Of a DNA stretch of 64,000 bases, positions 1,423 to 60,314 are shown one piece after another. Source of the stretch: Patescibacteria group bacterium (GTDB taxonomy: Bacteria; Patescibacteriota; Patescibacteriia; Patescibacteriales; GWC2-42-12). The position numbers and the translations under genes are program-made. Each line of letters starts with the position of its first letter. The first letter of the stretch is position 1. Where the stretch lies: NCBI GenBank assembly GCA_028707005.1, contig JAQTVB010000001.1, forward strand, positions 755 through 64,754. Direction: 5' to 3'. Under the pieces are notes generated by a model. That model was not told the origin of the DNA. It did no database searches and worked only from the letters and a program-made list of their open reading frames with translations.

Positions 1423-1509
1423 AGTTTTATTCAATCTGCAATTACGAATTATCAATTAACAATTTCATGATTTTAATTCGTAATTCGTAATTTTTCATTG
1501 ATCATTGAT

Positions 1510-1920
1510 TTAATATATTTCGCAAATCACTTCTCCGCCGATGCCTTGCTTTTTGGCCTCTTTGTTGGTCATTAAGCCGCGCGGAGTGGAAATAATCGCG
1601 ATGCCCAAATTATTCAACACTTTAGGCAGCTCTGTTTTACCCGCGTAGACCCTTCTACCCGGCGTGCTTACTTTCTTTAAGCAAGAAATCATCGGCTGGC
1701 CGTTCTTATATTTTAATTCAATCTTTATTTCATTAAAGGCGGAACTTGAATTCTTTTTGGCCGCGACTTTAATTATCTCCACTTTCTCAATCCAGCCGCC
1801 CTGCTCTAAAATTTTCGCAATATTATATTTCATTCTGCTCATAGGCAAAACAACCGTTTTTTTATTTACGGCTTGTGCATTCCTGATTCTTGTTAGCATG
1901 TCTGCGATTGGATCGGTCAT
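1510..1920 (-). CDS. rpsH: 30S ribosomal protein S8
   Basis: MTDPIADMLTRIRNA signature N-terminus of S8; 136 aa. Confidence 0.95.
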   Translation of the reverse strand: MTDPIADMLTRIRNAQAVNKKTVVLPMSRMKYNIAKILEQGGWIEKVEIIKVAAKKNSSSAFNEIKIELKYKNGQPMISCLKKVSTPGRRVYAGKTELPKVLNNLGIAIISTPRGLMTNKEAKKQGIGGEVICEIY

Positions 1921-2017
1921 ATTTAATAAATTTACAATTACGAATTATCAATTACGAATTATTTTATTCATTTATTTAACTAATTCGTAATTCTTAATTG
2001 TTAATTGATAATTGAAA

Positions 2018-2203
2018 TTACCAGCTGGACTTGGTGACTCCCGGTATATCGTTATTGGACGCCAGTTCCCTGAAACAAATGCGGCATAAGCCAAAATCTC
2101 TCATATAGCCGTGATTGCGGCCGCAGCGCCAGCAGCGCCTGATAATTCTGGTGGAAAATTTTGGTTTTCTTTTGGCTTTTACGATTAAAGCTGTTCTTGG
2201 CAT
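2018..2203 (-). CDS. rpsZ: 30S ribosomal protein S14 type Z (zinc-binding, 61 aa)
   Basis: [23 protein letters not shown] four-Cys motif typical of S14 type Z; between rplE and rpsH. Confidence 0.9.
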
Positions 2204-2220
2204 ATAGACAATAATTTAAA

Positions 2221-2796
2221 TTATTTTTTCTTAATTTTTCCCGCTTTAGGCTCAGTCTCATCCGCCCTGAAAGGGAAACCTAGTAATTTAAACAACTCTA
2301 GGCCTTGCTCGCGGTTTTTCGCAGTGGTGCTAAGGCAGACTCCCAAACCATGGATGTTTTCCGCTTCGTCGGCTTTAATTTCCGGGAAAGCGATATGCTC
2401 CTTAAAACCAACGGCCAAGTTGCCATGATTGTCTACCTGTTGCTGGCTGATGCCCCTGAAATCTCTGATTCTGGGAAAAGTTATATCAACTAATTTATCC
2501 ACGAAATCATACATTCTTTTATTGCGCAAAGTCACCGCCACTCCCAAAGTCATGCCTTTCCTGGTTTTAAAAGCGGAAATTGACTGTTTGGCTTTTGTTA
2601 AAATCGGCTTTTGGCCGCTAATCCTTTCCAAGCTGGAAACAACGCTATCTATAAAAGCCTTATCTTTGGCATTCCTGCCCACGCCGGAATTCAGCACAAC
2701 TTTAACCAGGCGCGGCACGGCCATGACGTTCTTATAACCGAATTTCGCGATCATTTTCGGAATTATTTCTTTTTGGTATCTCTCTTTTAAATTCAT
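2221..2796 (-). CDS. rplE: 50S ribosomal protein L5
   Basis: LKERYQKEIIPKMIAKFGYKNVMAVPRLVKVVLN is the canonical L5 N-terminus. Confidence 0.95.
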   Translation of the reverse strand: MNLKERYQKEIIPKMIAKFGYKNVMAVPRLVKVVLNSGVGRNAKDKAFIDSVVSSLERISGQKPILTKAKQSISAFKTRKGMTLGVAVTLRNKRMYDFVDKLVDITFPRIRDFRGISQQQVDNHGNLAVGFKEHIAFPEIKADEAENIHGLGVCLSTTAKNREQGLELFKLLGFPFRADETEPKAGKIKKK

Positions 2797-2812
2797 ATAT
2801 GCGAATTCTTAA

Positions 2813-3145
2813 TTAATCTATCGCTTGCTTGCATTTTTTACAAACCCTTACTTTTTTCTTATGTTTAACTTCATTTTTCACGACTTCTATATATTTATAG
2901 CCTACTCTGGTCGGCCGATCGCAGGCTTTGCAAACCAAGATGACATTTGATAAGTCCAGGGGCGCGGGAAATTCAATTCTCTGCCCTTTCTCGCCCTGCT
3001 TCCTCGGGCGCATATGCTTAATCAAAAGATTCAAGCCTTCAATCGAAGCCCGGTTGCCTAAGGGAAAAACTTGCAAAACTTTGCCGGTCTTGCCCTTGTC
3101 TTTGCCTGCTAATATTTTTACTTTGTCTCCCTTCTTTATCTTCAT
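2813..3145 (-). CDS. rplX: 50S ribosomal protein L24 with C-terminal Cys4 (CxxC...CxxC) extension
   Basis: MKIKKGDKVKILAGKDKGKTGKV KOW-domain start; C-terminal CKACDRP...CKKCKQ. Confidence 0.9.
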   Translation of the reverse strand: MKIKKGDKVKILAGKDKGKTGKVLQVFPLGNRASIEGLNLLIKHMRPRKQGEKGQRIEFPAPLDLSNVILVCKACDRPTRVGYKYIEVVKNEVKHKKKVRVCKKCKQAID

Positions 3146-3168
3146 ATAATTCTTAATTGATAATTGAC

Positions 3169-3540
3169 TTATAGCACCTCCGGCGCCAGCGAAGCAATCT
3201 TGGCAAAACCCAACTGCTTTAATTCGCGCGCCACCGGGCCGAAAATTCTTGTGCCTTTAGGATCTTTTTTATCTTTTTCAATAATAACGCAAGCGTTATC
3301 GTCAAAACGTAAATACGCGCCGTCAGAACGCCTGATTTCTTTTTTGGTTCTGATGATTACTGCCTGCGCAATGTCTCCGTCTTTAATCGCGGTATGCGGT
3401 TCAGCTTCTTTAATTACTACGGTAATAATCTCCCCGACGCTGGCATATCGTTTTTTGTAACCGCCTTGAATTCTAATGCACATCGCTCTTTTAGCGCCAG
3501 TATTATCAGCAACTTTTAATATTGTTTGTACCTGTATCAT
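3169..3540 (-). CDS. rplN: 50S ribosomal protein L14
   Basis: [27 protein letters not shown] is highly conserved L14 sequence. Confidence 0.95.
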
Positions 3541-3571
3541 ACCTTAATTTCAAATTTAAAATTTAAAATTC

Positions 3572-3862
3572 TTAATATATCATGCGCCAGCGCTTTTCTT
3601 TGCTTAACGGGCGGCATTCAACAAACCGCACTTTATCGCCGACTTTATATTGATTCTTCTCGTCATGAACTTTGAACTTCCTGCTTACTTTAAACCGTTT
3701 ATGGTATTTCGGATATATTCTGGCGGTTTCAACCGCGACCACTCTGGTTTTATCCATTTTATCGCCTATAACCACGCCGCTAAACTTGCGTTTAATGACT
3801 TGGCGCTTAGCTGGCTGGCTATTTTGACTTTGTTCTACCATATTTATTATATTAATTTTCAA
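3572..3862 (-). CDS. rpsQ: 30S ribosomal protein S17
   Basis: KRQVIKRKFSGVVIGDKMDKTRVVAVE...KVGDKVRFVECRPLSKEKRW S17 OB-fold pattern. Confidence 0.9.
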   Translation of the reverse strand: MKINIINMVEQSQNSQPAKRQVIKRKFSGVVIGDKMDKTRVVAVETARIYPKYHKRFKVSRKFKVHDEKNQYKVGDKVRFVECRPLSKEKRWRMIY

Positions 3863-3869
3863 TGGAAAA

Positions 3870-4061
3870 TTATTTTTTATTCTTATGATTTATTAATGTT
3901 AAAATCCGTGCAATTGTCCTTTTTATCACCCTAATCTCTCTAACATCTTTCAGCTGCTTATTAGCATCCTTAAAGCGCAAATCTCTCAATTTGTCGCGAG
4001 ATTCGTCCAAGATTTTCCTCAATTCTTTTTCGGTTTTAAGTTTTAATTCTTTTAAATCCAT
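3870..4061 (-). CDS. rpmC: 50S ribosomal protein L29 (start at MDLKELKLKTEKELRK; ORF extends to 4091 overlapping rplP)
   Basis: Small K/E/R-rich helical protein between rplP and rpsQ; L29-like. Confidence 0.8.
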   Translation of the reverse strand: MDLKELKLKTEKELRKILDESRDKLRDLRFKDANKQLKDVREIRVIKRTIARILTLINHKNKK

Positions 4062-4069
4062 ATAATATT

Positions 4070-4474
4070 TTATTTCTTGATGTATTTGCAATTAACCGGC
4101 AACTTATAAGCGGCCATCTTCATGGCTTCCTTGGCTTCTGGTTCGCTGATGCCGGCTATTTCAAACATTATCATGCCGGGTTTAACCACGGCGACATAAT
4201 GGTCAACCGCGCCCTTGCCTTTACCCATGGGAATTTCTCCGCCCTTAACCGTCACTGATTTATCCGGGAAAATTCTGATCCAAAGCCTGCCGCCTTTGCT
4301 GATATATCTGGTTAAAACTTTTCTGGCTGCTTCAATCTGCCGGGAGGTTACCCAGTAAGCGCCCAAACTCTTTAGGCCGTAATCGCCAAAGCTCAACTTA
4401 ATCATCTGCGAGGCTTTGCCTCCCCTTTTACGCTTATGCGACTTTCTCCATTTTGTTTTTTTTGGCATCAACAT
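4070..4474 (-). CDS. rplP: 50S ribosomal protein L16
   Basis: MLMPKKTKWRKSHKRKRGG...RQIEAARKVLTRYI L16 hallmark. Confidence 0.95.
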   Translation of the reverse strand: MLMPKKTKWRKSHKRKRGGKASQMIKLSFGDYGLKSLGAYWVTSRQIEAARKVLTRYISKGGRLWIRIFPDKSVTVKGGEIPMGKGKGAVDHYVAVVKPGMIMFEIAGISEPEAKEAMKMAAYKLPVNCKYIKK

Positions 4475-4565
4475 AGATTCAATTACAAATTGTCAATTAT
4501 CAATTACGAATTCACTTTATATTTGACGATTCTTAATTCGTAATTTTTAATTTTAAATTGGCTAA

Positions 4566-5255
4566 TTACTTCTTTTCTCCGACAATTTCTCCTTTGGCAG
4601 TCTCGCTTTCTTTCTTAAACACATCTCCCTTATATATCCATAACTTTATTCCAATGGTTCCATAGGTGGTTTTGGCCGTGGCTTTGGCGAAATCAATATC
4701 GGCTCTTAAGGTGTGCAACGGAACTTTGCCCGAGGTAAGCATTTCCGTCCTGGCGATTTCCGCGCCATTTAACCGGCCGCTGATAATTACTTTTACTCCT
4801 AAAGCGCCCGCTCTTTCTATCCGGCTAATCGCCTGCTTCATTACTCTTCTGAAAGGCATTCTTTTTTCAATGTCAATCGCCATCAAACCGGCGATAATCG
4901 CGCTCGATAAATTCGGCCTGTCAAATTCCGTGATATTCAAATTTATATCGCCCAACTTGAAATTCTTTAAAAATTTATCATGCAATTTCTTTTTTAAATC
5001 ACCCGCGCCGCTACCGCCGCGGCCGATTATAATCCCCGGCTTAGCCGTAAAAATACCGATTACAACCTTATGCCCGCTTCTTTCTATCTCCACCCGATCC
5101 ACGCCGGCTTCCCTAAACTCGGTGAATAAATATTTTCTTAAATTAACATCCTGCTCTAAATTTTTAATTAAAATCTTTCCAGTAGCAAACCATCGGGACG
5201 GCCAAGTCCTGGTAATATTCAACCTAAATACTTTTGGATTTACTTTATGTCCCAT
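4566..5255 (-). CDS. rpsC: 30S ribosomal protein S3
   Basis: MGHKVNPKVFRLNITRTWPSRWFA and KH-domain GRGGSG; 229 aa. Confidence 0.95.
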   Translation of the reverse strand: MGHKVNPKVFRLNITRTWPSRWFATGKILIKNLEQDVNLRKYLFTEFREAGVDRVEIERSGHKVVIGIFTAKPGIIIGRGGSGAGDLKKKLHDKFLKNFKLGDINLNITEFDRPNLSSAIIAGLMAIDIEKRMPFRRVMKQAISRIERAGALGVKVIISGRLNGAEIARTEMLTSGKVPLHTLRADIDFAKATAKTTYGTIGIKLWIYKGDVFKKESETAKGEIVGEKK

Positions 5256-5342
5256 AGATTCAATTACAAATTATCAATTATCAATTACGAATTAAGGAAT
5301 TTATAATTTTTAATTCGTAATTTTTAATTTTTAATTGATTTA

Positions 5343-5939
5343 TTATCCGCTCTTTCTCCTAAACATCTTCCCCACAAACCCCTTGCTGCCGCCTTCTATC
5401 CTGGCGTGGCCGCGGCGTCCTTCCATCCTCGGATCGGTAATTACTTTGCCTTCTTCTTTGGTTTCAATGTTCTTTTCTTTCTTGTCTTTTTTGGCCGGTT
5501 CTTTGATTTCAACGGCCGGTTCTTTTTTGGGCTTGGTTTCAAGCTTAATCGGCGAGGCCAAAACCTGCTTTTTCGCAGCCACCTTGCCCGAAGGCTTAAT
5601 CTCATCTAAAACCAAGTAAATATGACTGGTCCGTTTTCTGATGGGTGTTGCTCGTCCGTGCGCTCTGGGCATCCAGCGCTTCAAAGTCGGACCCTGGCCG
5701 ATGGTTATTTCTTTTATGAATAAATTATCTTTAACCAATTCAAAATTGTGCTCGGCGTTCGCCATGGCTGATTTTATGAGCTTAGCTACCGGCCCGGCGG
5801 CCAATTTATCTATAAATTGCAACTGGTCCAGCGCTTTGACTACCGGCATTTTTTTTATCAAATTAGCCACCAGTCTTATCTTGGTCGGCGACATTTTGAT
5901 AAATTTTAATTTCGCTTTTACTTCCATAAATAGATTCAA
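5343..5939 (-). CDS. rplV: 50S ribosomal protein L22 with ~80 aa K/E-rich C-terminal extension
   Basis: KAKLKFIKMSPTKIRLVANLIKKMPVVKALDQLQF L22 core; extension KPKKEPAVEIKEPAKKDKKEKN. Confidence 0.9.
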   Translation of the reverse strand: MNLFMEVKAKLKFIKMSPTKIRLVANLIKKMPVVKALDQLQFIDKLAAGPVAKLIKSAMANAEHNFELVKDNLFIKEITIGQGPTLKRWMPRAHGRATPIRKRTSHIYLVLDEIKPSGKVAAKKQVLASPIKLETKPKKEPAVEIKEPAKKDKKEKNIETKEEGKVITDPRMEGRRGHARIEGGSKGFVGKMFRRKSG

Positions 5940-5975
5940 TTACAAATTATCAATTATCAATTACGAATTATTGAT

Positions 5976-6314
5976 TTACTTGCCTGCTTTCGGCGCTGGC
6001 GCTCCGGCTGGCGCTGGCGCTCCGGCCGCGGCCGATTCTCTGGCCTGATCTTTGGCCATCTTGCCGCCATGGCTGATAAATTTCCTGGTTGGTGAAAATT
6101 CTCCCAGCTTGTGCCCTACCATATTTTCCACAATAAAAACCGGCACATGTTGCTTGCCATTATGCACGCCGATGGTAAAGCCTACCATTTCCGGAGCAAT
6201 CGTACAAGCCCTGTCCCAAACCTTAATAACGGCCTTATCCCCCTGGCGCAAGGCTCTGATTTTTTTCATTAATCTTTCGTTAACGTATGGCCCTTTTTTC
6301 AACGATCTGGACAT
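5976..6314 (-). CDS. rpsS: 30S ribosomal protein S19 with [17 protein letters not shown]-terminal tail
   Basis: [19 protein letters not shown] and [14 protein letters not shown]19 motifs. Confidence 0.95.
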
Positions 6315-6326
6315 ATATTATATAAA

Positions 6327-7160
6327 TTATTTTACTCTTCTTGAAATAATTAATCTATTGGATCTCTTTTTGTGGTCCCTGGTTTTGACTCCCAGCGCCG
6401 GTTTGCCCCATTTTGTCTTCGGGTGCCTTAAACCGATTGATTGCTTGCCTTCACCGCCGCCATGCGGATGGTCCACCGGATTCATGGCCGTTCCTCTTAC
6501 CGTCGGCCTTACGCCCAAAAGTCTTTGCCGGCCGGCTCGGCCGATAACGATGTGATTTCTGTCCGGATTGCTTACTTGGCCGATTGTGCAAAGGCACTCT
6601 TTGTTCACCAGCCGAATTTCGCTGGAAGGCATTTTAATCTGCGCATAATCCCCTTCAACGCCCATCACAGACGCTAAATTGCCTGCCGCGCGGGCGACGC
6701 GCGCGCCCCGTCCCGGCTCTAATTCAAGATTATAAACCTGGATGCCGGCAGGAATGAATTTAATGGGCATGGCATTGCCGGTTTTAATTTCAATTTTATT
6801 CTTTGAACTTAAAATTTCCTCGCCGACATTCAGGCCCAGCGGCATAATGATATATCTTTTTTCGCCGTCTTTATAATATACCAAGCCGATTCTTGCACCG
6901 CGGTTCGGATCATATTCAATAGACATTACCTTGCCCGGAATATCAAATTTGTCTCTTTTAAAATCAATTTGGCGGAGATATCTTTTAACGCCGCCGCCCT
7001 GATGGCGCACCGTAATCTTGCCGGTGTTGTTTCTGCCCGCCTGGGGCTTCTTGATGGTAATCAAACTCGGCTCCGGTTCAGTTTTGGTAATATCCAAAAA
7101 ATCGTCGAATGTTGCCGACCGCCTGCCTGATGATGTAGGTTTTACTATTTTAATTCCCAT
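6327..7160 (-). CDS. rplB: 50S ribosomal protein L2
   Basis: GRNNTGKITVRHQGGGVKR and PVDHPHGGGEGK L2 signatures. Confidence 0.95.
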   Translation of the reverse strand: MGIKIVKPTSSGRRSATFDDFLDITKTEPEPSLITIKKPQAGRNNTGKITVRHQGGGVKRYLRQIDFKRDKFDIPGKVMSIEYDPNRGARIGLVYYKDGEKRYIIMPLGLNVGEEILSSKNKIEIKTGNAMPIKFIPAGIQVYNLELEPGRGARVARAAGNLASVMGVEGDYAQIKMPSSEIRLVNKECLCTIGQVSNPDRNHIVIGRAGRQRLLGVRPTVRGTAMNPVDHPHGGGEGKQSIGLRHPKTKWGKPALGVKTRDHKKRSNRLIISRRVK

Positions 7161-7244
7161 AGAATCAATTACGAATTATCAATTACGAATTACGAATTTT
7201 TGTAATCTTAATTGATAATTGTTAATTCGTAATTTTTAATTGAA

Positions 7245-7730
7245 CTAAACTCCTTCGTAAATTTTAATGGTCTGGCCTTCGGGCAAGGTTACAATAGCCT
7301 TCTTCCAATCTTTTCTCTTGCCGCTGGTTCGGCCATAACGCGCCTTCTTGCCTATCTTATTAATAACGTTAACGCCGATCGGCTTGATGCCATAGATTTC
7401 TTTAACAGCTTTAGCTATTTCTATTTTATTGGCATCAAGCGCTACGGCGAAAACATATTTATTTAAAACACCTAAATTGCTCACTTTTTCAGTCACTAAC
7501 GGCTTGGCTAAAATTCTATAAGCATTGCCATAAACCGTTCTCACTTCCGTCTTTTTACCGCCGGCTTTAACGGTTTTCACGGTGCTGGGCGCGGCATACA
7601 AATCTTTCATGCTTTTGCCGGCCGGTTCGGTCTTAAGGACTTTTTTAGCAGCTTGAACCGGAGCGGGTTTTGCAACCTCTTTTGTCTTATCTGCTTTTTT
7701 ATCTTCAGTTTTCTTGCCGAATAGTGACAT
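7245..7730 (-). CDS. rplW: 50S ribosomal protein L23 with ~65 aa Lys/Ala-rich N-terminal extension
   Basis: C-terminal 95 aa (YRILAKPLVTEKVSN...KKAIVTLPEGQTIKIYEGV) is L23; the N-terminus is low complexity. Confidence 0.85.
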   Translation of the reverse strand: MSLFGKKTEDKKADKTKEVAKPAPVQAAKKVLKTEPAGKSMKDLYAAPSTVKTVKAGGKKTEVRTVYGNAYRILAKPLVTEKVSNLGVLNKYVFAVALDANKIEIAKAVKEIYGIKPIGVNVINKIGKKARYGRTSGKRKDWKKAIVTLPEGQTIKIYEGV

Positions 7731-7744
7731 AGATTACAATTTTT

Positions 7745-7876
7745 AATTTTTAATTTTATAATTTTTAAATAATAACCAAATATTCTAATTTTTAATAAAA
7801 TGCGAGTCGTGAGAGCTGAATTATATTTAGTTATTAAAAATTAAGATATTATTTAAAAATTATAAAATTAAAAATT
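7745..7876. repeat. Perfect 30-bp inverted repeat (aatttttaattttataatttttaaataata / its reverse complement) flanking a 72-bp core in the rplD-rplW spacer; long hairpin or miniature element
   Basis: Direct reading: arms at 7745-7774 and 7847-7876 are exact reverse complements. Confidence 0.7.
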
Positions 7877-8612: not shown

Positions 8613-8624
8613 ATTTCATTATTA

Positions 8625-8738
8625 TTGTCATTGCGGGCTTGACCCGCAATCCAGGAGAGTGTGGCACGAACACATTATTTTACCATTCGCGTTCTTGCTA
8701 CATACTCCTGGATGGCGGCTCGGAGGCCGCCATGACAA
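8625..8738. mobile_element. MITE-like palindromic element of the TTGTCATTSCGGG family (TIR ttgtcattgcgggc ... gccgccatgacaa; internal ccaggag/ctcctgg palindrome)
   Basis: Terminal inverted repeats and sequence similarity to copies at 12311, 12581, 47406 and 59975. Confidence 0.55.
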
Positions 8739-8817
8739 AAATTATTCAAATCACTAATCTGTAAAATTGGGGGGAGTTTGCTTCCTCCGCCCCATGAGGA
8801 CTGGCCTCTCTAGACCT

Positions 8818-9339
8818 TTAGCTGGCCTCGTCGTCCAGCGCCGACCTGGCATCCCCATCGTATAGCAGTTTTCGCAAACGATCGGCAACGGCTCTGGCCG
8901 TAACCATCTTCTCAAATGCCCTCACAAACTGTCGGTGGTTGCGTCTCCACTGGATTGCCTCTTGGTCTTGGCTTAACTCAGCGGCCAGATCACGATACTC
9001 AACATCAAGTTCCGCCACCTCTTTTAGCACTACCGACTCGTTCACCATGATGAATAGTTGTGACATCAATGGTAGTGGTTGCAACAGCCTGCGCAGGCGT
9101 TCAACAAGGGCTCTGGCTCTAATCATTCGCTCAAACTTCCGGACGAACTCTTGATGTTCCTCTCTCCATTGGATTACCTCCTGGTATTGGCTTAACTCAG
9201 TGGCCAGATCACGATACTCGGCATCAAGCTCCGCCACCTCTTGGCGCAATTTTTCCACGTCCGCCACCACGAATGGCTGTGATTCAATTGGTCGTGGTCC
9301 AAACATCAGCTCCAACTCTGCTTCTGTAATTGCAATCAT
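8818..9339 (-). CDS. Hypothetical GC-rich coiled-coil protein made of two tandem ~55-aa repeats (VAELDAEYRDLATELSQYQEVIQWREEHQEFVRKFERMIRARALVERLRRLL / VAELDVEYRDLAAELSQDQEAIQWRRNHRQFVRAFEKMVTARAVADRLRKLL), inserted between rplD and rplC
   Basis: Single uninterrupted ORF; internal duplication seen directly in translation; GC roughly 55% versus about 40% in flanking genes. Confidence 0.6.
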   Translation of the reverse strand: MIAITEAELELMFGPRPIESQPFVVADVEKLRQEVAELDAEYRDLATELSQYQEVIQWREEHQEFVRKFERMIRARALVERLRRLLQPLPLMSQLFIMVNESVVLKEVAELDVEYRDLAAELSQDQEAIQWRRNHRQFVRAFEKMVTARAVADRLRKLLYDGDARSALDDEAS

Positions 9340-12278: not shown

Positions 12279-12310
12279 ATTATATTGTCTTAACGGCCCC
12301 CAACATCACC

Positions 12311-12339
12311 TTGTCATTCCCGCGAAAGCGGGAATCCAG
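12311..12339. repeat. Partial copy of the MITE-like repeat (ttgtcattcccgcgaaagcgggaatccag)
   Basis: Identical 29-mer to the left end of element 12581-12700. Confidence 0.6.
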
Positions 12340-12420
12340 AAATTTTGGGGTTATCGCCCGATAATTTAAAAGGTGGGCGTCCAACCGTCTATAATTAATT
12401 TTATTATGAATTTTATTAAG

Positions 12421-12449
12421 GACACGATACGACAAGCTTGCATCGTGTT
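12421..12449 (-). terminator. Hairpin (cacgatgcaagcttgtcgtatcgtg) plus AT-rich tail immediately 3' of the tRNA-like element
   Basis: Inverted repeat read directly. Confidence 0.4.
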
Positions 12450-12527
12450 TGGAGCCCCCGATTGGAATCGAACCAATTACCTCGACCTCTTGCGAGGCCG
12501 CAGTCTAGCCATGTGACTTACGGGGGC
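12450..12527 (-). ncRNA. 78-nt tRNA-like element. It has a 7-bp acceptor stem, U8, D-arm with G18G19, T-arm GGTTCGATTCC, discriminator and encoded CCA. The anticodon arm is replaced by a 6-bp stem capped by a GCAA tetraloop (GGCCTC-GCAA-GAGGTC); no 7-nt anticodon loop can be folded.
   Basis: Manual folding of GCCCCCGTAAGTCACATGGCTAGACTGCGGCCTCGCAAGAGGTCGAGGTAATTGGTTCGATTCCAATCGGGGGCTCCA. Confidence 0.45.
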
Positions 12528-12580
12528 GCCAAAAATTTTAAAAGTACATCTCCTTAACGAAATGCACAATCCTTATTTCT

Positions 12581-12700
12581 TTGTCATTCCCGCGAAAGCG
12601 GGAATCCAGGAGGGAGCGGCAGGAATGCGGCCGTTATGATAACATGTTCATGCCTCGCTCTCCTGGATTCCCGACAGCCTGCGGCTTCGGGAATGACAAC
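12581..12700. mobile_element. Full-length 120-bp MITE-like element: TIR ttgtcattcccg / cgggaatgacaa, internal hairpins (tcccgcgaaagcggga; ccaggagag...ctctcctgg)
   Basis: Perfect 12-bp terminal inverted repeats; member of dispersed family. Confidence 0.6.
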
Positions 12701-12706
12701 ATATAA

Positions 12707-13114
12707 TTAAAACGCCAAATCTTCCAGATACTGCCGGTCTTCTTCAATAATTTCTTCGGCGTTAACCTTTCTCTTTGGCGGAATTGACCAGCTTTTATTA
12801 AATTTTCTTATCATTTTCTCCCGCGCTTCTTCTTTATCTTCTTTAACCGGCAGCTCGGAAAAATAATCCAGGCTGGTGTCAAAATCTTTATCTTCAACTT
12901 GTTCGCTTTTCCAGATGGCAATATCGCGATTTATTTTATCAAGTAGCTCATCTTCTGTCAAGCCCCTAACCTCGCTTTTGCCTAAAACCAAGTTTTCATA
13001 ATCTTTCACCGACATGATTACAAAAGCGTTGTCCGGCTTGGAGCTGTCGAAAACAATTAATTTATCGCCGGTTTTTTTTACCAAATTAATCGCTTTTTGC
13101 AATTGATCCTGCAT
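12707..13114 (-). CDS. Hypothetical acidic protein (135 aa)
   Basis: Uninterrupted ORF with typical codon usage; no recognisable motif. Confidence 0.5.
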   Translation of the reverse strand: MQDQLQKAINLVKKTGDKLIVFDSSKPDNAFVIMSVKDYENLVLGKSEVRGLTEDELLDKINRDIAIWKSEQVEDKDFDTSLDYFSELPVKEDKEEAREKMIRKFNKSWSIPPKRKVNAEEIIEEDRQYLEDLAF

Positions 13115-13292
13115 AACAATACGAATTACGAATTTATTACGAATTTACGAAAATTTAATATCGCTCACTCTAATGATTCGTATTTACATTATATTTTCTC
13201 TGGACTAAAAAGTCAAACACTGGACAAATTCCTGATAGAAAGAAACTTGACTTTTATATTCGTAAATTTGTAACTGATTCGTAATTCGTATG

Positions 13293-15374: not shown

Positions 15375-15446
15375 AGAGTAAAAATTTTTAATTTTGTAAT
15401 TTTTAATTTTTAAACAATTTTCAATGATTTAATTTTCAAAAAATTT

Positions 15447-15881
15447 TTAGCCCCGAAATTCTCTTCGCACATTTTCATCTAATCGACTAATAAAACCGCT
15501 TCTATTTTCAGGCCGTATATCTGCAATTAATCTTTTTAAAAATGGGACATCTTTTTTTATTCTATCGGAAGCATATTGTATAGCGTAAGGATCGCCTCCA
15601 AGACCGTCCGTTCCCTTAGAGCACGCGCTAAAAACAACATCTTCATCGTCTCGTAAACTATTAGACGCAAATCTTAAATACTCGCCATTGTGTAATCTCA
15701 AAAAAGCCTTCATAAAATCTTTGTCGTTTACCAAGGTCGGATCACCTTGCTCAACTAGCTCAGCTAATTGAGTAAGTTCTTCATTATTCATTTCTCTTCC
15801 TGATTTATGTGCAGCAAGAATATGTCTTCTTAAAGTTAACGCTTCATTTTCGTTTGGTTGTCGCGGGATTTGTTCTGGCAT
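15447..15881 (-). CDS. Hypothetical protein with DUF4116-like repeats (NGEYLRFASNSLRDDEDVV; DPYAIQYASDRIKKDVPFL), inserted between rpsG and fusA
   Basis: ORF; repeat pattern xNGxxLxYASxxLRxDxE recalled from DUF4116 family. Confidence 0.45.
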   Translation of the reverse strand: MPEQIPRQPNENEALTLRRHILAAHKSGREMNNEELTQLAELVEQGDPTLVNDKDFMKAFLRLHNGEYLRFASNSLRDDEDVVFSACSKGTDGLGGDPYAIQYASDRIKKDVPFLKRLIADIRPENRSGFISRLDENVRREFRG

Positions 15882-15979
15882 TTTTTATAAACAATAACTC
15901 AATTTCTCTTTTCAAAATTGAAAATTGAGAATTGAAAATTGTTTAAAAATTAAAAATTACAAAATTAAAAATTACTGTA

Positions 15980-16456
15980 TTATCTCGCGAAGTGCGCGAA
16001 CGCCTTGTTGGCTTCGGCCATGCGGTGCACTTCGGCGCGCTTCTTCACGGCCGTACCCTCGCCCTTGGCCGCGTCCATAATCTCGGCCGCCAGCTTTTCC
16101 GCCATGGGTTTTCCCTTGCGGGCCCGGGCCGCTTCAATCAGCCAGCGGCAGCCTAAAGCAAAACGCCGTTCGCCTCTAACCTGAAAAGGAATCTGGTAAT
16201 TGGCTCCGCCGACGCGCCGGCCGCGGATTTCCAAAAGCGGACTAACCTGCTTTAAAGCTTTATTAAAAACGTGCCTGGGATCCTGCTTGGTCATTTCTTT
16301 TACAATATCAAAACAGCTGTAGACGATTTTTTGCGCCACGGATTTTTTACCGCGCTCCATGATGTAATTAATAAATTTAGCGATATCCAAATCGTTGAAT
16401 CTCGCCTCCGGCAAAATTTTTCTTTTGCTTACTGCTTTTCCTCTCATATTGGTCAA
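15980..16456 (-). CDS. rpsG: 30S ribosomal protein S7
   Basis: KRAEVHRMAEANKAFAHFAR C-terminus and overall S7 pattern. Confidence 0.95.
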   Translation of the reverse strand: MTNMRGKAVSKRKILPEARFNDLDIAKFINYIMERGKKSVAQKIVYSCFDIVKEMTKQDPRHVFNKALKQVSPLLEIRGRRVGGANYQIPFQVRGERRFALGCRWLIEAARARKGKPMAEKLAAEIMDAAKGEGTAVKKRAEVHRMAEANKAFAHFAR

Positions 16457-16518
16457 TTAAGAATTACGAATTATCAATTACGAATTAAAATTCGTAATTC
16501 GTAATTTTTAATTGTTAA

Positions 16519-16938: not shown

Positions 16939-17158
16939 ATGAAAAAATTTTTAATTTTATAATTTAATAATACGAATTACGAATCTGCTACGAATTTACG
17001 AATGAATATAATGCAAAACATAAACGAGGTAGATGGCGCGGTTATCAGTATTCGTAAATTCGTAATTCGCATCCCTTTAGTAAAAAAACAAACCCGTATA
17101 CGCGGGATATTTAAAAAACTAACGGCTTATTCTAATCTAACACAAGGTAAAAAAATGG

Positions 17159-17398
17159 TCAAGAGCGCTTATTGCTTACTTTCTTCTCCAATATTTCCAC
17201 TCGCCGTTGCAATTCTACTAGCTCAAATCGGTAAGCCACATTGTCTAGTTTTAGTTTAATTTCCTCCTGGCCTCGCTCTAAAGTATCTAACCGCTCTTCT
17301 GTGCGATTAAACCTCTTACTATGGCTATTTTCCGCTTCAGCAAAGCCAGTTTGCACCATAGCCGCCAAATCTTCAATTGTCACTTTTTTATTTTTCAT
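17159..17398 (-). CDS. Hypothetical small coiled-coil protein (79 aa)
   Basis: ORF with heptad-like charged pattern; no homolog recognised. Confidence 0.35.
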   Translation of the reverse strand: MKNKKVTIEDLAAMVQTGFAEAENSHSKRFNRTEERLDTLERGQEEIKLKLDNVAYRFELVELQRRVEILEKKVSNKRS

Positions 17399-21175: not shown

Positions 21176-21249
21176 TGGTCGGGGTGCGCGGAATCGGACC
21201 GCGGCTACAAGCACCCCATGCTCGCGTACTGCCACTATACGACACCCCG
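21176..21249 (-). tRNA. tRNA-Pro (anticodon GGG), 74 nt with encoded CCA, C1:G72 pair, G37
   Basis: Manual cloverleaf: CGGGGTG acceptor, D stem GTAT/GTAC, anticodon stem CGAGC/GCTTG with loop AUGGGGU, T arm CGCGG-TCCGATT-CCGCG, ACCA. The overlapping ORF 20975..21259 is spurious. Confidence 0.85.
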
Positions 21250-24315: not shown

Positions 24316-24424
24316 ATAATTTATTCAAACGAATTACGCGGATACAAAGTTGCCGAGAAAAAATCGAAGCTTCACTGATTCTGGCATTCGTAAATTCGTA
24401 CCCGATTCGTAATTCGTATTATTA

Positions 24425-24893: not shown

Positions 24894-25823
24894 CTATTTT
24901 TTGATGATTTTCCGGCCATCGCTCGCCAGTCTGATTGTTCCCTCCAAATCAGTGCGATAAATTTTTGCGCCTTGCCGTTCGATTCTTTTTATTGTTCTTA
25001 AGCTGGGGTGGCCGAATTGATTGTCCCGGCCGACTGCAATCACGGCAATATCCGGCCGAACCAATTTAAGAAATGCTTCGCCGGTGGAATAGCTTGATCC
25101 ATGATGACCGACCTTTAAAACATCGGCTGGCAGATCAACGCCGGCGGCAATCAAGGCATCCTCAACTTCCGCTCCCGCGTCGCCGGTCAAGAGGATCTTC
25201 TTCTGGCCATAAATCAGTTTGCTGATTATGGAACTTTGATTTAAATCCTTGATGGCGCGATTCAACAGGCTGGAATTGGGATAAAGTATCTCCAGGCGGG
25301 TGTTCTCGCCCAAAGCTATAGTTTGCGCCCGATCAACTATCTCCAGCGGCACTTTTTTATCACGCACCAGCTTAAGCCAGCTTAAATAGTTGGGCGCGTT
25401 ATGCGTTACGCCGGTGTATAAAATCTTTTTCACCTGATATCTTTTTAAAACTTCTATCAGCCCGGTTACATGATCATCATGCGGATGCGTAAGAATCATT
25501 AGATCAATTTCCTTGTCCCACCAAGCCAAATTTTCCGAGAGCCGCCTTACCACGGTTTTATCCGGCCCGCCGTCTATTAAAACATTTTGTCCGGCCGGCG
25601 TTTTAATTAAAATCGCATCGCCCTGGCCCACGTCCAAAAAATCCGCTTCCAGCTTTTGCGGCTGGCTCCAGTAAAGCCAAAACAAAGGAATAGCGACCAA
25701 TATAGCCGCTATTCCCAGTATGAGAAAAATTTTACATAGTTTGGCAGACACAAAAAAATTTTCAATTTTAAATTTTTGAATTATTTTGAAAATTGATAAT
25801 TGATAATTGAAAATTATCCTCAC
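24894..25823 (-). CDS. MBL-fold metallo-hydrolase, ComEC C-terminal domain-like (stand-alone), N-terminal TM anchor
   Basis: LDVGQGDAILIKTP...THPHDDHVTG metallo-beta-lactamase motif, as found in the ComEC/Rec2 C-terminus. Confidence 0.75.
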   Translation of the reverse strand: MRIIFNYQLSIFKIIQKFKIENFFVSAKLCKIFLILGIAAILVAIPLFWLYWSQPQKLEADFLDVGQGDAILIKTPAGQNVLIDGGPDKTVVRRLSENLAWWDKEIDLMILTHPHDDHVTGLIEVLKRYQVKKILYTGVTHNAPNYLSWLKLVRDKKVPLEIVDRAQTIALGENTRLEILYPNSSLLNRAIKDLNQSSIISKLIYGQKKILLTGDAGAEVEDALIAAGVDLPADVLKVGHHGSSYSTGEAFLKLVRPDIAVIAVGRDNQFGHPSLRTIKRIERQGAKIYRTDLEGTIRLASDGRKIIKK

Positions 25824-29641: not shown

Positions 29642-31186
29642 CTACAATTGTGAGCTAATGTCAAATTTTTCTGCCAACATTTTGCATCGCCGCAATTTGA
29701 TGACTAAAAAAATTATTAGCAAATAATAGACCGCCACCCAGCCCCAAGCCAGATGACCAACGGTCAAAGAGCTGAATTTAAAACCGGCAAAAAATTTCAC
29801 CACCGCCAGAATGTATTTGGTCAAAATCAGGCTGGGCAGAAAAAAAAGAAATGACAGCTTAGGGACAAGCGCGGCCAGAGGCAAGGCCGCCAAAATAGCC
29901 ATGGTCAGAATCGGCACGGCCCATAGCACGGCCAAATTGGCCAGGGGCGCGATCAAAGAGACGCGCGAAAAGTCATAAGCCAGGATCGGCACAGTGAAAG
30001 TTTGCGCGGCCAGCGTGATCAGCAAAGCGTCGCTCACGCCCTTGAGCTTGGGCAGTTTGATTTTTTCCCAGAGCGCTTCCAGAATCGGATAAACATAAAC
30101 CAGCCCGGCCATGGCCGCAAAAGACAGCTGGAAACCGGCGTCATCGCGCAACAGCTTGGGATTAATTAACAATAAAATCGCCGCGGTTAAAACCAGCGAG
30201 TTGGTCATCTTGTTTAACCGCCCCAATTTCAGCGCCCAAAGCACAAAAAAAGCCATCAGCCCGGCGCGCGTGGCCGAGGCCGGTGCGCCGACCAATATAA
30301 TATAACCGGCCAGCAGCGCGACCGCCAAATAAAACGCGTAACGCCGCGCCACTCCTAAGGCCAATAAGACGGCCATGGCGATAGCCGCTAAAATACTGAC
30401 GTTGAAACCGGAAACGGCCATAATATGCGTCAAGCCGACTTTTTGAAAATCATCCCTAATATTTTGCGGCAAGCCTTTTTGTCCGCCAAAAACAATCGGC
30501 CGCGCCAAACTTGCTTCCGGCTCGCTTAATCCCGCGTCAATCAAGCCGGCCAGAATTTTTTTAAAATGAAAAATGCGGCGGTAAATCAGATTGCCTTGGC
30601 CCGAGCGGATGACGCTGATCTTCGGATAATAGCACACCGCGTAGATATTATAGCGCGCCAAGTAGCGATCATAAGCAAACCCGTTGAATTCTTCCGGCTG
30701 CTCCGGCTGGCACGCTATTTCCAGCTCGTCGCCATAGTCATGCTCCGGATACAAATTGGTGGTAACCAGCAATCTGCCCTTGGCCGGCCGCCAGGCCGGC
30801 GACTGAATTGCCACCACCGCGATCTCTAATTTTTGGCTGGTTTCCCTTGGATCAGGCTCGCTGGCCACCAACCCGCGCGCTACCACTGATTTCCCATGAT
30901 AATGCCAGATTTTATCCGGCGCATCCTGCGGCAGGCTTACGGCATAGCGCCAAAGGGCAAAGCATAAAATGGCCATGCCCAGTAAGGCCAGGTCGCGACC
31001 TGGCCTTGCCTTGGCCGTTGCTCCGCCTGTCTGCCACAACAACGCCGCCACCATCAAAAAAAATATGGCGGCGCCAAACCACCGTATTTTATATTCTAAA
31101 AATTTAACTGGCAAAAACGAGGCCGCGGCAATACCGACAATAAACACTAAACAACTGATTAAAAAAATCTTGGATTTAGAAAACAT
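29642..31186 (-). CDS. comEC: ComEC/Rec2-family DNA internalisation channel (DUF4131 plus competence domain) lacking the MBL domain
   Basis: GLTHIMAVSGFNVSIL competence-domain motif; polytopic membrane protein of 514 aa. Confidence 0.8.
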   Translation of the reverse strand: MFSKSKIFLISCLVFIVGIAAASFLPVKFLEYKIRWFGAAIFFLMVAALLWQTGGATAKARPGRDLALLGMAILCFALWRYAVSLPQDAPDKIWHYHGKSVVARGLVASEPDPRETSQKLEIAVVAIQSPAWRPAKGRLLVTTNLYPEHDYGDELEIACQPEQPEEFNGFAYDRYLARYNIYAVCYYPKISVIRSGQGNLIYRRIFHFKKILAGLIDAGLSEPEASLARPIVFGGQKGLPQNIRDDFQKVGLTHIMAVSGFNVSILAAIAMAVLLALGVARRYAFYLAVALLAGYIILVGAPASATRAGLMAFFVLWALKLGRLNKMTNSLVLTAAILLLINPKLLRDDAGFQLSFAAMAGLVYVYPILEALWEKIKLPKLKGVSDALLITLAAQTFTVPILAYDFSRVSLIAPLANLAVLWAVPILTMAILAALPLAALVPKLSFLFFLPSLILTKYILAVVKFFAGFKFSSLTVGHLAWGWVAVYYLLIIFLVIKLRRCKMLAEKFDISSQL

Positions 31187-36753: not shown

Positions 36754-36863
36754 ATTTAAAAACAATACGAATTACGAATCAATTACTAATTTACCAATTC
36801 AATCGCTGATTTACCTAAATTTATTCGTAAATTCGTATAGAATTCGTAATTTGTATTGTTAAA

Positions 36864-37205: not shown

Positions 37206-37312
37206 AAATTACCAATCAACAAATCAGCTACGAATAACACGAATACTCATAGAAAATTTGTAAATTTTTTTATTATTTGTGTCATTTGTGAATTAATTTG
37301 TTGATTTGTAAT

Positions 37313-38146: not shown

Positions 38147-38719
38147 AATGCGAATACTGCGAATTAATCGCGAATACTGCGAATTAATATTTGCGGCATT
38201 CGCATATCATTCGCGGATTCGCATTAATTTTGATTCACTTTATAAGTCTTGCGATTATAATACTCGGCCTGTTTGCCGTCGTTCCATTGCTGGACCGGCC
38301 GTAAATAACCGACGACGCGGGAATAAACTTCGCAAGCGGTTCTCTTGGTTTCAATGGGGCTCATAGATAATTTTCAATTTTCAATTTACTAATTTTCAAT
38401 CAATTTTCAATGCAACAATTCTTAAATTTTCAATTGGTTTTATCCGCCGTTTGAAAATTGAAAATTGTAAATTCATTGAAAATTGAAAACTGTAAATTGA
38501 AAATTTTTATTTTATTTTTTATTTACAATAAATATTTTAACAATGAGTATTTATGCAATAATCTATTGCACCTACTATTATAAACGGCATCACACAAAAT
38601 AAAACAACTAAAAGAAATATGACAAGCAAAATAGTAAAAAATAACTGATGTTTTTGAGATTCTCCCTTAATTTTAAATTTTACATTGTCATTTTCCATTT
38701 TGATTTTTACATTTTCAAC

Positions 38720-60306: not shown

Positions 60307-60314
60307 AAAATGGT

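Follow-up and report, generated by a model that had tools for sequence, protein, structure and literature searches.

Palindromic heptanucleotide-repeat spacers between ribosomal protein genes of a Falkowbacteria-like CPR genome are probably fast-evolving, dispensable DNA elements

Introduction

Correia, ERIC and REP elements are transcribed together with neighbouring genes and influence mRNA cleavage or stability. Heptanucleotide repeats are described as the commonest class of long simple sequence repeat (SSR) in bacteria, and are ascribed in those accounts to polymerase slippage (Mrazek 2007; PMC4679880, PMC4692102). A regulatory network has been proposed for the TAACTGA repeats of Beggiatoaceae, with S1, Csp or CsrA suggested to bind them (PMC4679880). 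The arrays described here match the TAACTGA case (PMC4679880) in lying directly upstream of start codons that lack a Shine–Dalgarno (SD) sequence, including those of ribosomal protein (r-protein) operons.

We analysed a 64-kb stretch (64,000 nt, hereafter the window) of a Falkowbacteria-like CPR genome. Here and in relatives, repeat elements fill essentially the whole stop-to-start interval at co-directional junctions, an unexpected load for the streamlined genome of an ultra-small bacterium. We consider it likely that these spacers are a fast-evolving population of dispensable, DNA-level palindromic heptanucleotide-repeat (microsatellite/MITE-like) elements.

Results and discussion

Heptamer arrays in the window

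Gene starts were corrected for L6 (1422), L22 (5927), S7 (16446) and the ORF called at 24894–25823 (true start 25736), and a plus-strand ORF at 17002–17259 was spurious. With gene starts corrected, all matches to AATTACGAATT are intergenic, 24 exact copies on both strands against 0.21 expected in dinucleotide shuffles of the window (n = 100, highest count in any shuffle 3), and none in its coding DNA. The initial annotation had placed this motif between r-protein genes and named equal frequency in coding regions as the sign of a compositional artefact; the motif is present there far above chance and its coding copies number zero.

The AATT cores repeat at a strict 7-nt period, with 81 intergenic matches to AATT-N3-AATT compared to 2–14 for other spacings (N1, N2, N4, N5, N6). 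AATT-N3-AATT-N3-AATT occurs 45 times in intergenic DNA and three times in nominally coding DNA, the latter all within an 82-nt spacer (25738–25819) masked by an over-extended ORF call. The elements are imperfect inverted repeats, each arm being built of tandem 7-nt units with a conserved 4–6-nt core and a variable linker. Units in the window follow AATT+NNN, with AATTACG and AATTAAA predominating in the 5′ arm and AATTCGT and AATTGAT in the 3′ arm. Across the six full AATTACG spacers, AATTACGAATT copies without exception lie 5′ of the AATTCGTAATT copies, hence these are true inverted repeats. Linkers are ACG, AAA or AAC in the 5′ arm and CGT or GAT in the 3′ arm. This orientation holds for 16 of 16 elements, drawn from 10 genomes, and the elements form one homologous, oriented family. 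Units have only the core in common, not the full heptamer, a pattern unlike the product of recent pure slippage.

Intergenic DNA here has a GC content of 10–25%, and AATT arrays always look partly palindromic because AATT is self-complementary, both of which favour an artefact of composition or assembly. That reading is refuted, and its probability is negligible, given the dinucleotide-preserving shuffles (0.2 versus 24 observed), the confinement of enrichment to 7-nt spacing, the strict split of ACG and CGT linkers between arms, an equal inverted architecture built from non-self-complementary cores (GAAGTAA/TTACTTC, AAAGTTA/TAACTTT) and the recurrence of elements in many independent assemblies.

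Between S12 and S5, 13 of 24 junctions carry a repeat-array spacer of at least 48 nt, seven of these being of the AATTACG type (S10/spc/str cluster) with palindromes filling the stop-to-start gap, and the other 11 are tight, from overlap to 31 nt (Table 1). The claim that almost every junction is punctuated was therefore too strong, and among the examples listed for it the r-protein sites stand, but those at 13115–13292, 24340–24424, 36760–36863 and 49534–49649 belong to a looser TACGAAT/ACAAAT family, spaced at 8–11 nt and found at operon boundaries. Strongly 7-periodic spacers occupy 10 of 24 junctions in the r-protein cluster, compared to 3 of 41 elsewhere in the window (p = 0.0025). This concentration, together with a single orientation relative to genes, could reflect selection for function.

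Table 1. Repeat-bearing spacers in the window, with RNA folding energy, z-score against shuffles and self-match at period 7
Feature	Position	Strand	Element	Fold (kcal/mol)	z	Self-match
L6→L18 junction	786–870	−	GCGAAT-type palindromic spacer, 85 nt	−34.8	−5.3	
S8→L6 junction	1423–1509	−	AATTACG...CGTAATT palindromic heptamer spacer, 87 nt	−18.8	−3.6	0.60
S14→S8 junction	1921–2017	−	AATT-core palindromic heptamer spacer, 97 nt		−3.5	0.58
L14→L24 junction	3146–3168	−	Short array, three AATT units, no hairpin			
S17→L14 junction	3541–3571	−	Short AAATTTT array, small hairpin			
S3→L16 junction	4475–4565	−	AATT-core palindromic spacer, 91 nt, weak fold		−1.7	
L22→S3 junction	5256–5342	−	AATT-core palindromic spacer, 87 nt		−5.0	0.68
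S19→L22 junction	5928–5975	−	Half element, 3′ arm only			
L23→L2 junction	7161–7244	−	AATTACG palindromic spacer, 84 nt	−20.7	−6.1	
L4→L23 junction	7731–7874	−	AATTTTT...AAAAATT palindromic heptamer spacer, 144 nt	−28.2	−6.4	0.53
Downstream of fusA	13115–13292	−	Looser TACGAAT-type palindrome		−6.8	
DUF4116→fusA junction	15375–15446	−	GAAAATT/AAAAATT direct heptamer arrays, no hairpin of their own		+0.8	0.52
S7→DUF4116 junction	15882–15979	−	AATTTTT/AATTTTC heptamer arrays, local hairpin		−3.0	0.57
S12→S7 junction	16447–16518	−	AATTACG palindromic spacer, 72 nt		−5.5	0.70
Intrinsic terminator / S12 start gap	16939–17075	−	TACGAAT-type palindrome			
Response-regulator / NDK gene gap	24316–24424	−	TACGAAT-type array, partial palindrome		−3.7	
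CARDB surface-protein / metallo-beta-lactamase-fold gene spacer	25738–25819	−	AATTTTC/AATTATC...GAAAATT arrays			
TACGAAT-type palindrome	36760–36863	−	104 nt		−6.1	
ACAAAT/ATTTGT-type palindrome	37206–37312	−	107 nt		−5.3	
NrdD-side small ORF / radical-SAM gene gap	38147–38536	−	Two palindromes: TTTTCAA...TTGAAAA heptamer type; GCGAAT...ATTCGC type		−3.5; −4.7	
Diacylglycerol-kinase / ftsA gene gap	49534–49649	−	ACAAAT/TACGAAT-type palindrome		−3.0	

Folding and translation context

The hairpin potential first proposed for these spacers was borne out in silico, with five of six full AATTACG spacers folding at z = −3.5 to −6.1 and none of 200 shuffles equally stable; the sixth, 4475–4565, is marginal (z = −1.7). 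Stems are 25–35 bp long with periodic internal loops and fill the stop-to-start gap, in one case (1921–2017) as a ‘beaded’ stem of 4–12-bp helices between 2×2 internal loops. The median distance is 4 nt from stop to stem and 8 nt from stem to ATG, with the hairpin comprising 84% of the spacer. SD-like motifs were found at only 6 of 63 genes.

This geometry, in which the stem base adjoins both codons, is what would be expected if the hairpins were selected RNA elements punctuating polycistronic mRNA, as sites for RNase III or another RNase, 3′-end stabilisers or coupling/attenuating structures. They would then set the relative output of r-protein genes in an SD-less organism, their turnover being neutral drift under structural constraint. 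Enrichment in the r-protein cluster, the fixed orientation and a possible analogy with co-transcribed Correia, ERIC and REP elements point the same way, yet we regard such a role as unlikely. Sense and antisense folding of 37 heptamer palindromes showed no bias (17:19, p = 0.57), whereas 230 hairpin spacers of other types in those loci were sense-biased (160:68, p = 3e-11), although the missing G–U asymmetry is weaker evidence than it appears because heptamer arms contain only ~10% G. Moreover, 5928–5975 is a lone 3′ arm, 4475–4565 folds like its shuffles, array length is unconstrained given the gain and loss of units between strains, and close relatives lack elements at the same junctions, some relatives nearly altogether.

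If the elements are instead DNA-level repeats, they would be tolerated because genes do without SD sequences and the stem joins stop and start. Operon transcripts probably include them as weak, AU-rich hairpins of −12 to −21 kcal/mol. The stem base lies ~4 nt past the stop and ~8 nt short of the ATG, where a ribosome reaching the stop would melt it and free the AU-rich leader. We propose that translational coupling is thereby preserved across an 85-nt insertion. Processing of the mRNA by RNase III, or a change in its stability, may also follow from the hairpin, but as a secondary effect.

Comparison with related genomes

Comparison with 160 related loci (three-digit labels below), as the initial annotation had suggested, showed orthologous junctions where elements are absent, tight or differently filled. 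Across these loci the architecture is built from over 10 distinct 7-nt units, including cores AATTACG, AATTTTC, AAAATGT, GAAGTAA, AACTCGC, GATTTTC, AAAGTTA, CTAAATC and ACGAAAn, among others. Among 747 spacers from 81 sources, 53 of the 77 strongly periodic ones had a period of 7 or 14. Long spacers had been called unusual for bacteria, and junctions are indeed mostly short in non-CPR control loci (L060, L065–L080).

Tight junctions (1–30 nt) run nearly or fully throughout L009, L006, L081 and L085, whereas L084 carries elements at nine junctions, eight of one flavour, including an orthologue of the 1423–1509 element with an identical 3′ end. The S3–L16 junction is TAA-T-ATG in at least nine relatives (including L005, L006, L008, L009, L085, L088 and L089) and is filled by at least five different flavours in others. 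L22→S3 holds a GATTTTC-type (L002/L083) or AAAGTTA-type (L001) element or only 20 nt (L004–L006), and L23→L2 holds AATT-type elements in L003, L017, L035 and L089 but 11 nt in L006 and L009. At S19→L22, L002 has a full 85-nt palindrome where the window has the 3′ arm only. Different species thus have different junctions occupied, and the tight orthologous junctions of sister genomes show that the elements are dispensable. A conserved RNase or attenuation site is disfavoured by the absence of elements in L006, L009, L081 and L085 and by the lack of a sense-strand (G–U) folding advantage. The elements come and go among relatives in the manner of repeats or mobile DNA, not of conserved control signals.

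A conserved core recurring every 7 nt, with variable linkers between, resembles an array of sites, and the position before SD-less start codons recalls the TAACTGA repeats. The arrays might therefore be phased binding sites for a protein reading ~7 nt per subunit (S1, a cold-shock-domain or a nucleoid protein) in a translational or chromosomal regulatory network. We find this improbable. At least six unrelated cores occur together in one L001 operon and the window also holds several, hence a single protein cannot read all arrays; the inverted arrangement would be left unexplained, and relatives do without the elements. The single abundant DNA-binding protein suggested initially is unlikely on the same grounds, with more than 10 unrelated cores and several per genome.

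Copying within genomes and unit-number change

Copies at different junctions of one genome reach 100% identity over 95 nt (L017), 92% over 85 nt including the loop (L002) and 89% over 89 nt (L008). Arm copies in the window span 38–39 nt at 97–100% identity: the 38-nt arm of 4475–4565, whose 3′ arm (AATTCGTAATTGATAATTGAcAATTTGTAATTGAATCT) directly adjoins the ATG, is 97% identical to copies at 5256–5342 and 5928–5975, and the latter matches the 3′ arm of 5256–5342 at 100% over 39 nt. Units of 15375–15446 are the complement of those of 15882–15979. In two strain pairs at 99.7–99.8% identity, arrays differ in length by exactly 7 nt and exactly 14 nt through indels. For L002 and L083 (99.8% over 7.4 kb) the sole indel is one GATTTTT unit, and for L095 and L096 the sole small indel is 14 nt, or two units.

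We suggest that the elements arise and persist at the DNA level, where replication slippage would add or remove units, fold-back/template switching or quasipalindrome correction would keep the arms complementary, and copy-and-paste (transposition in trans or gene conversion) would seed new junctions, including originally 1-nt ones. Against this, the ORFs of the 64-kb window yielded no transposase, integrase or RAYT-like domain that could carry out the copy-and-paste step. No clean empty-versus-filled pair showed element ends or a target duplication, and the L006/L089 pair can equally reflect expansion of an AATTA seed that was already there or near-complete deletion.

Phage occurrences

AATTACG arrays were detected in more than 120 viral stretches (GC 21–67%), some palindromic and intercistronic. 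The module is thereby present in unrelated genomes, including a Mu-like phage of 55% GC that carries stop-(AATTACG)4-loop-(CGTAATT)4-SD-ATG. Analogous stop-hairpin-SD-ATG modules recur ahead of several structural genes in L230 and L206, contigs of Mu-like phages, which favours a selected RNA role.

Other palindromes and transcription signals

Being intergenic, the spacers might serve as gene-by-gene promoters or internal terminators/attenuators of an unusual AT-rich, CPR-specific type. The looser TACGAAT palindromes flank promoter-like sequences and adjoin terminators, and a T-rich run follows AATT elements on the antisense strand. Nevertheless, both proposals from the initial annotation are unsupported for the AATT spacers, which contain no sigma-70-like −35/−10 pair above 9–10 of 12 and whose AU-only stems lack a GC-rich stem and a U-tail. 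Canonical TTGACA-17-TATAAT promoters and terminators elsewhere in the window indicate that the organism uses standard signals: 11/12 promoter matches in the same region (TTGACT-17-TATAAT, TTGACA-17-TAGAAT) and terminators with GC-rich stem and T-tract after tuf (11079–11054) and at 17085–17115. Terminator-like sites were no more frequent in a scan than expected (23 versus 24.4), and relatives have the same operon without spacers. We regard a transcriptional role as very improbable.

The TTGACT-17-TATAAT match (11/12, 13216–13188) lies in the loop of the palindrome downstream of fusA. At the L6→L18 junction, the L18 Pfam match starts at residue 30 of a long ORF.

Heptamer arrays in the ribosomal protein operons

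Nearly all genes in the window lie on the minus strand, and Pfam matches read from position 16938 to 1 give the order S12, S7, a DUF4116 gene, EF-G and, further along, EF-Tu, S10, L3, an unknown ORF, L4, L23, L2, S19, L22, S3, L16, L29, S17, L14, L24, L5, S14, S8, L6, L18 and S5. Palindromic spacers had been described in the initial annotation at almost every junction of these operons. Repeat spacers are real, and occupy about half of the junctions: arrays are present at 13 of 24, comprising seven of the AATTACG type and six with other units (AATTTTT, AATTTTC, GCGAAT, TACGAAT and CTACAAA), and 11 junctions are tight. Strongly 7-periodic spacers were found at 10 of the 24 ribosomal protein cluster junctions vs 3 of 41 elsewhere in the window (p = 0.0025). 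The examples first listed beyond 13 kb do contain repeats, these belong to a looser TACGAAT/ACAAAT family at operon boundaries. The proposed motif enrichment is likewise genuine and statistically overwhelming, with 24 copies of AATTACGAATT in the window vs 0.21 expected, all of them intergenic after correction of over-extended ORF starts. Such over-extension of ORFs into repeat spacers by gene callers affects L6, L18, L22, S7 and the gene at 24894.

AATT cores are spaced exactly 7 nt apart, as AATT-N3-AATT has 81 intergenic matches vs 2–14 for other spacings. Read in the sense direction, a full AATT element has a 5′ arm of AATTAAA/AATTACG units starting a few bases past the stop codon, a loop of variable sequence, and a 3′ arm of AATTCGT/AATTGAT units which ends in ..TAATTGA(A/T)TCT immediately 5′ of the ATG. 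The linkers between cores vary (ACG, AAA, AAC and ATC in one arm; CGT, GAT and GAC in the other). Near-identity between copies in the window is confined to the arms (26–39 nt at 97–100%), with three copies having a 38–39-nt arm in common at 97–100% identity.

Presence, turnover and copying among relatives

Judged from its L2 and S3 relatives, the host is a Falkowbacteria-like member of the Patescibacteria/CPR. The closest L2 matches share 83–90% protein identity and about 76–78% DNA identity, hence even the best relatives are a different species. Exact-protein look-ups with S3, L14 and S12 returned no strain of the window’s own species, and relatives in a metagenome scan had S3 identities of 90% or less, which leaves those relatives as the sole source of strain-level evidence. 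Junctions were taken from 160 related loci after locating the ribosomal protein genes. In four of these (L006, L009, L081 and L085) junctions are 1–30 nt nearly or wholly throughout, others carry elements at most junctions (L001, L002/L083, L082, L084, L033 and L035), and in L084 nearly all junctions hold repeat DNA. On this comparison the heptamer palindromes are dispensable.

Individual junctions differ both in occupancy and in unit type. The L22–S3 junction is filled by the AATT type in the window and L082, by GATTTTC units in L002, AAAGTTA units in L001 and ACGAAA units in L084, and is just 20 nt long in L004–L006. At the S3–L16 junction at least nine relatives have TAA-T-ATG, and others hold elements there of at least five flavours (unit types). 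A 1-nt spacer offers slippage nothing to extend, hence at least some elements were inserted. Where flanks of an empty (L006) and a filled (L089) junction could be aligned at about 95% identity, no clear target duplication was seen and the ends were ambiguous.

Of 747 spacers, 77 were strongly periodic, with a period of 7 or 14 in 53 of the 77. More than ten unrelated cores were found, including many that are not self-complementary, and every one follows the plan of unit array, loop and complementary array, so that the palindrome architecture is independent of sequence. Elements are also copied within a genome: near-identical full-length copies occur at different junctions of the same locus, with 100% identity over 95 nt in L017, 92% over 85 nt in L002 (loop included) and 89% over 89 nt in L008. 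Terminal inverted repeats and near-identical full-length copies in one genome are the features of a Correia/ERIC-like MITE, and both are present here in elements that are wholly palindromic. Whole-unit copy-number change between close strains was also observed, in relatives only: L002 and L083 share 99.8% identity over 7.4 kb, with a single GATTTTT array unit as the sole indel between them, and L095 differs from L096 by one 14-nt (two-unit) indel inside an array.

Within the AATT family, 16 of 16 elements, drawn from 10 genomes, have ACG/AAA/AAC linkers 5′ of the loop and CGT/GAT linkers 3′ of it, and the orientation relative to genes is identical in all 16. By these shared features the AATT elements are one homologous family. 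For any one flavour, a 5′ arm of X with a 3′ arm of its complement is trivial for any palindrome and was discarded as evidence, which leaves the arm asymmetry of the AATT family alone as informative on orientation. A leader function would predict a better-conserved 3′ arm, next to the ATG. The 3′ arm is no better conserved: the longest shared word averaged 16.1 nt in the 3′ arm vs 15.6 nt in the 5′ arm (p = 0.38).

Hairpins at the DNA and RNA level

Folding against shuffled sequences showed five of six full AATTACG copies to be much more stable (z −3.5 to −6.1), the energies themselves being modest (−16 to −21 kcal/mol). That the hairpins truly act as RNA, whether in processing, stability or coupling, we regard as improbable, though worth keeping in mind. 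Across the related loci, 37 heptamer palindromes showed no bias between sense and antisense folding (17:19, p = 0.57), whereas 230 other hairpin-forming spacers, which should include terminators and structured RNAs, were sense-biased (160:68, p = 3e-11). The overall sense-strand bias among AT-rich hairpin spacers was traced to these non-heptamer hairpins. The lack of sense bias is consistent with palindromes that arise and are homogenised as DNA, although the arms contain little G, which weakens the comparison. We favour, with some confidence, a dispensable and fast turning-over family of palindromic heptanucleotide repeats, generated by slippage together with a presumed copy mechanism and probably passive in operon transcripts as weak AU hairpins.

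The regulatory readings first proposed for the spacers found mostly no support. The best sigma-70 matches in AATT spacers (TTGACA/TATAAT-like hexamers, 16–18 nt apart) reached 9–10 of 12 positions, a terminator scan detected no intrinsic terminator features in them, their stems are AU-only, and their 3′ flank reads ..AATTGAATCT-ATG. There was no excess of terminator-like sites. Standard signals are used elsewhere in the window, including two promoter matches at 11 of 12 positions outside AATT spacers (Table) and terminators with a GC-rich stem and T-tract after tuf and upstream of rpsL, and the promoter/terminator reading was rejected. An Rfam 15 scan of the whole window at the gathering threshold gave zero matches.

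Comparison with known repeat systems

As summarised in PMC4679880 and PMC4692102, heptanucleotide repeats outnumber every other class of long SSR in bacteria, an abundance ascribed to polymerase slippage (Mrazek 2007), and cyanobacterial STRR heptamers are tandem, strictly intergenic and at times inside operons, e.g. pecE–pecF in Nostoc (Mazel 1990). The same summaries describe units that differ by genome, lengths that differ among close relatives, and a function given as unknown. The window elements are similar in being tandem (head-to-tail) 7-nt units, intergenic and varied by genome, and in relatives also by strain. They differ in that only the 4-nt core is constant among AATT units, arrays are paired as inverted repeats to form one hairpin, and these AT-rich arrays span stop to start exactly in a streamlined CPR genome.

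TAACTGA repeats, known from marine Beggiatoaceae and from some Cyanobacteria and Bacteroidetes, are intergenic and lie directly 5′ of start codons without a Shine–Dalgarno (SD) motif, including in ribosomal protein operons (fusA, L3, S4), and their patchy phylogenetic distribution suggests horizontal spread by a mobilising mechanism that is not known (MacGregor 2015, PMC4679880). The window heptamers also lie upstream of SD-less starts in ribosomal protein operons. However, TAACTGA is one unit in 2–6 copies and almost always direct (169 direct sets vs one inverted; PMC4679880), whereas the window elements use many units in inverted pairs which fill the whole spacer. GGGAATC/GGGGAYT heptamers of Xanthomonas and Nostoc are intergenic with extensive length variation among relatives (Rehm 2015, PMC4692102), and some are inverted pairs able to form stem-loops, though most are direct (PMC4692102). 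Unlike the window elements, they are G-rich, G-quadruplex-forming and not stop-to-start.

REP/BIME, ERIC and Correia (NEMIS) elements of proteobacteria are imperfect palindromes of 35–150 nt, intergenic but also within operons, co-transcribed as RNA hairpins, present or absent by strain, and with several families per genome. REPs carry a GTAG head and require RAYT transposases, and Correia elements have a TA target duplication together with defined inverted repeats at their ends. The window elements are instead built from tandem 7-nt units, with no Correia-type TA duplication found, and in place of a 20–40-nt palindrome with a GTAG/CTAC head they end in (A)TCAATTA...TAATTGA(A/T)TCT. No RAYT (Y1, IS200/IS605-like) domain was detected in any ORF of the 64-kb window, nor was an autonomous IS element with matching ends seen there. 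PeSL of T4-type phages, a short stem-loop with an expression signal before many genes, is copied between intergenic sites, contains an early promoter and has no heptamer arrays. Arbiol, Comeau and Krisch are said to have described these in 2010 as “mobile regulatory cassettes”. The window elements have no recognisable promoter.

Two further readings were considered. DNA uptake sequences, prompted by a comEC gene in the window, were rejected because many flavours coexist and none is in coding DNA, and integron attC-like sites were set aside because the flanking genes are core ribosomal genes in conserved order. The elements thus combine the heptamer-repeat theme with the palindrome theme of REP/BIME, ERIC and Correia. 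We found no literature description of such elements in CPR/Patescibacteria/Falkowbacteria, nor of the repeat sequence itself. Their main interest is their location, within core operons and exactly from stop to start. CPR/Patescibacteria genomes are considered to be strongly streamlined; here, roughly every second junction in the cell’s most conserved operons holds 50–180 nt of fast-turnover repeat DNA. Arrays are likely break or collapse points in metagenome assembly, and unit-number variation could be a strain marker.

Translation context and possible coupling

Only six of 63 window genes have an SD-like motif, and the sequence 5′ of start codons is A/T-rich and usually T-ending. In heptamer palindromes the median distance is 4 nt from stop codon to stem and 8 nt from stem to ATG, and the stem covers 84% of the spacer vs 62% in other hairpin spacers. 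Both distances (stop-to-stem and stem-to-ATG) are ≤12 nt in 51% of heptamer palindromes vs 24% of other hairpin spacers. A ribosome ending the upstream cistron covers roughly a dozen bases 3′ of the stop. From this stem geometry we infer that a terminating ribosome would melt the base of the stem, leaving the leader beside the ATG accessible. Translational coupling could thereby survive insertion, which would explain both the toleration of elements in operons needing balanced output and the exact gap-fit of surviving copies.

A stronger version, which we consider a long shot, is that these are a so far unrecognised class of hairpin-forming, heptamer-built mobile elements common to CPR bacteria and phages, which insert exactly stop-to-start in one orientation and persist because their stem keeps stop and start adjacent, preserving or tuning ribosome hand-over. 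If true, such elements would serve SD-less genomes as portable modules for intercistronic coupling or punctuation. Junctions found empty, filled, or with other units offer natural experiments on hairpin-preserved coupling, and the family links three poorly understood things, the excess of 7-nt repeats in bacterial intergenic DNA, REP/MITE-like palindromes and the translation of coupled operons without SD motifs.

Copies in viruses and phages

The phased AATT/AATTACG pattern was detected in >120 viral stretches with GC from 21 to 67%. Giant-virus MAG contigs, in which long direct arrays occur, are among them. So are Mu-like phage contigs related to phages of Alteromonadaceae, Pseudomonas and Ralstonia; in these, stop-(AATTACG)4-loop-(CGTAATT)4 leads into a repeated SD leader, after which the next structural gene starts. 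In two phage copies (L230, L206) the hairpin is repeated together with the ribosome-binding leader, as in PeSL. Perfect 4.5-unit AATTACG arrays occur in 17 viral stretches vs 7 and 3 for the control units AATTAGC and AATTCAG, hence AATTACG is commoner but not unique, and a special status for it was rejected. Heptamer arrays with an AATT core are a general type of sequence prone to expansion, for which fold-back of a single strand at the self-complementary core is a possible reason. Long direct AATTACG arrays, of up to about 19 units, were seen in giant-virus MAG contigs L168 and L225 and in very GC-rich viral contigs (L199/L213, 64% GC), in both cases far from the surrounding composition.

Other elements in relatives and the window

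A MITE-like element of about 110 nt, AAACTTTTT.AGAAAAAGTTTT...TATAAT...CAAGT.AAAATTTAATAGCG..CCATTAAATTTT.ACTTGATA, was found at different ribosomal protein junctions in 11 related loci (L003, L004, L005, L006, L008, L010, L085, L086, L088, L093 and L095), with no match in the window at up to three mismatches. An 86-nt element bounded by GC-rich terminal inverted repeats, CCTGCCCGCCAT...ATGGCAGGCGGG, interrupts a heptamer array in L095 (positions 3101–3186) and is missing from L096, a strain 99.7% identical to it; no target duplication was evident.

Positions of individual features in the window
Position	Feature	Description
5928–5975	AATTACG-type element	3′ arm alone; among the seven junctions of this type
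8613–8817	Spacer after 173-aa ORF (region 8613–9339)	205 nt, 48% GC, strong palindromes, z −6.3
8818–9339	173-aa ORF	Inserted between L3 and L4; no Pfam match, own GGAGG site
10541–10513	Promoter match	TTGACA-17-TAGAAT
13216–13188	Promoter match	TTGACT-17-TATAAT
12280–13114	fusA–tuf interval	135-aa ORF, weak PhdYeFM antitoxin match
12450–12527	tRNA-like gene	4-base anticodon called by ARAGORN
12582–12698	GC-rich inverted repeat	TGTCATTCC...GGAATGACA
	51-aa ORF	Ends 1 nt before tuf start
8626, 12312, 12582–12698, 47407, 59976–60306	Separate GC-rich inverted-repeat family	TGTCATTCCCG...CGGGAATGACA, in longer intergenic regions
18604, 22553, 47209	Recurrent hairpins	CCTGCCTGCC...GGCAGGCAGG
15447–15881	DUF4116 gene (region 15375–15979)	Between S7 and fusA
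21176–21249	tRNA-Pro(GGG)	Called by ARAGORN
29642–31186	comEC	Competence gene
52252–63188	Two very large ORFs	2587 aa and 957 aa

The tRNA-Pro was called by ARAGORN, yet the Rfam gathering-threshold scan of the window returned not even a tRNA match. Both very large ORFs have N-terminal T4SS-pilin-like domains and Ig/fn3/TIG domains, typical of CPR surface proteins. Arrays of AATTTTC lie 5′ of the DUF4116 gene and the complementary GAAAATT arrays 3′ of it, so that the gene looks as though placed in the loop of a split palindrome.
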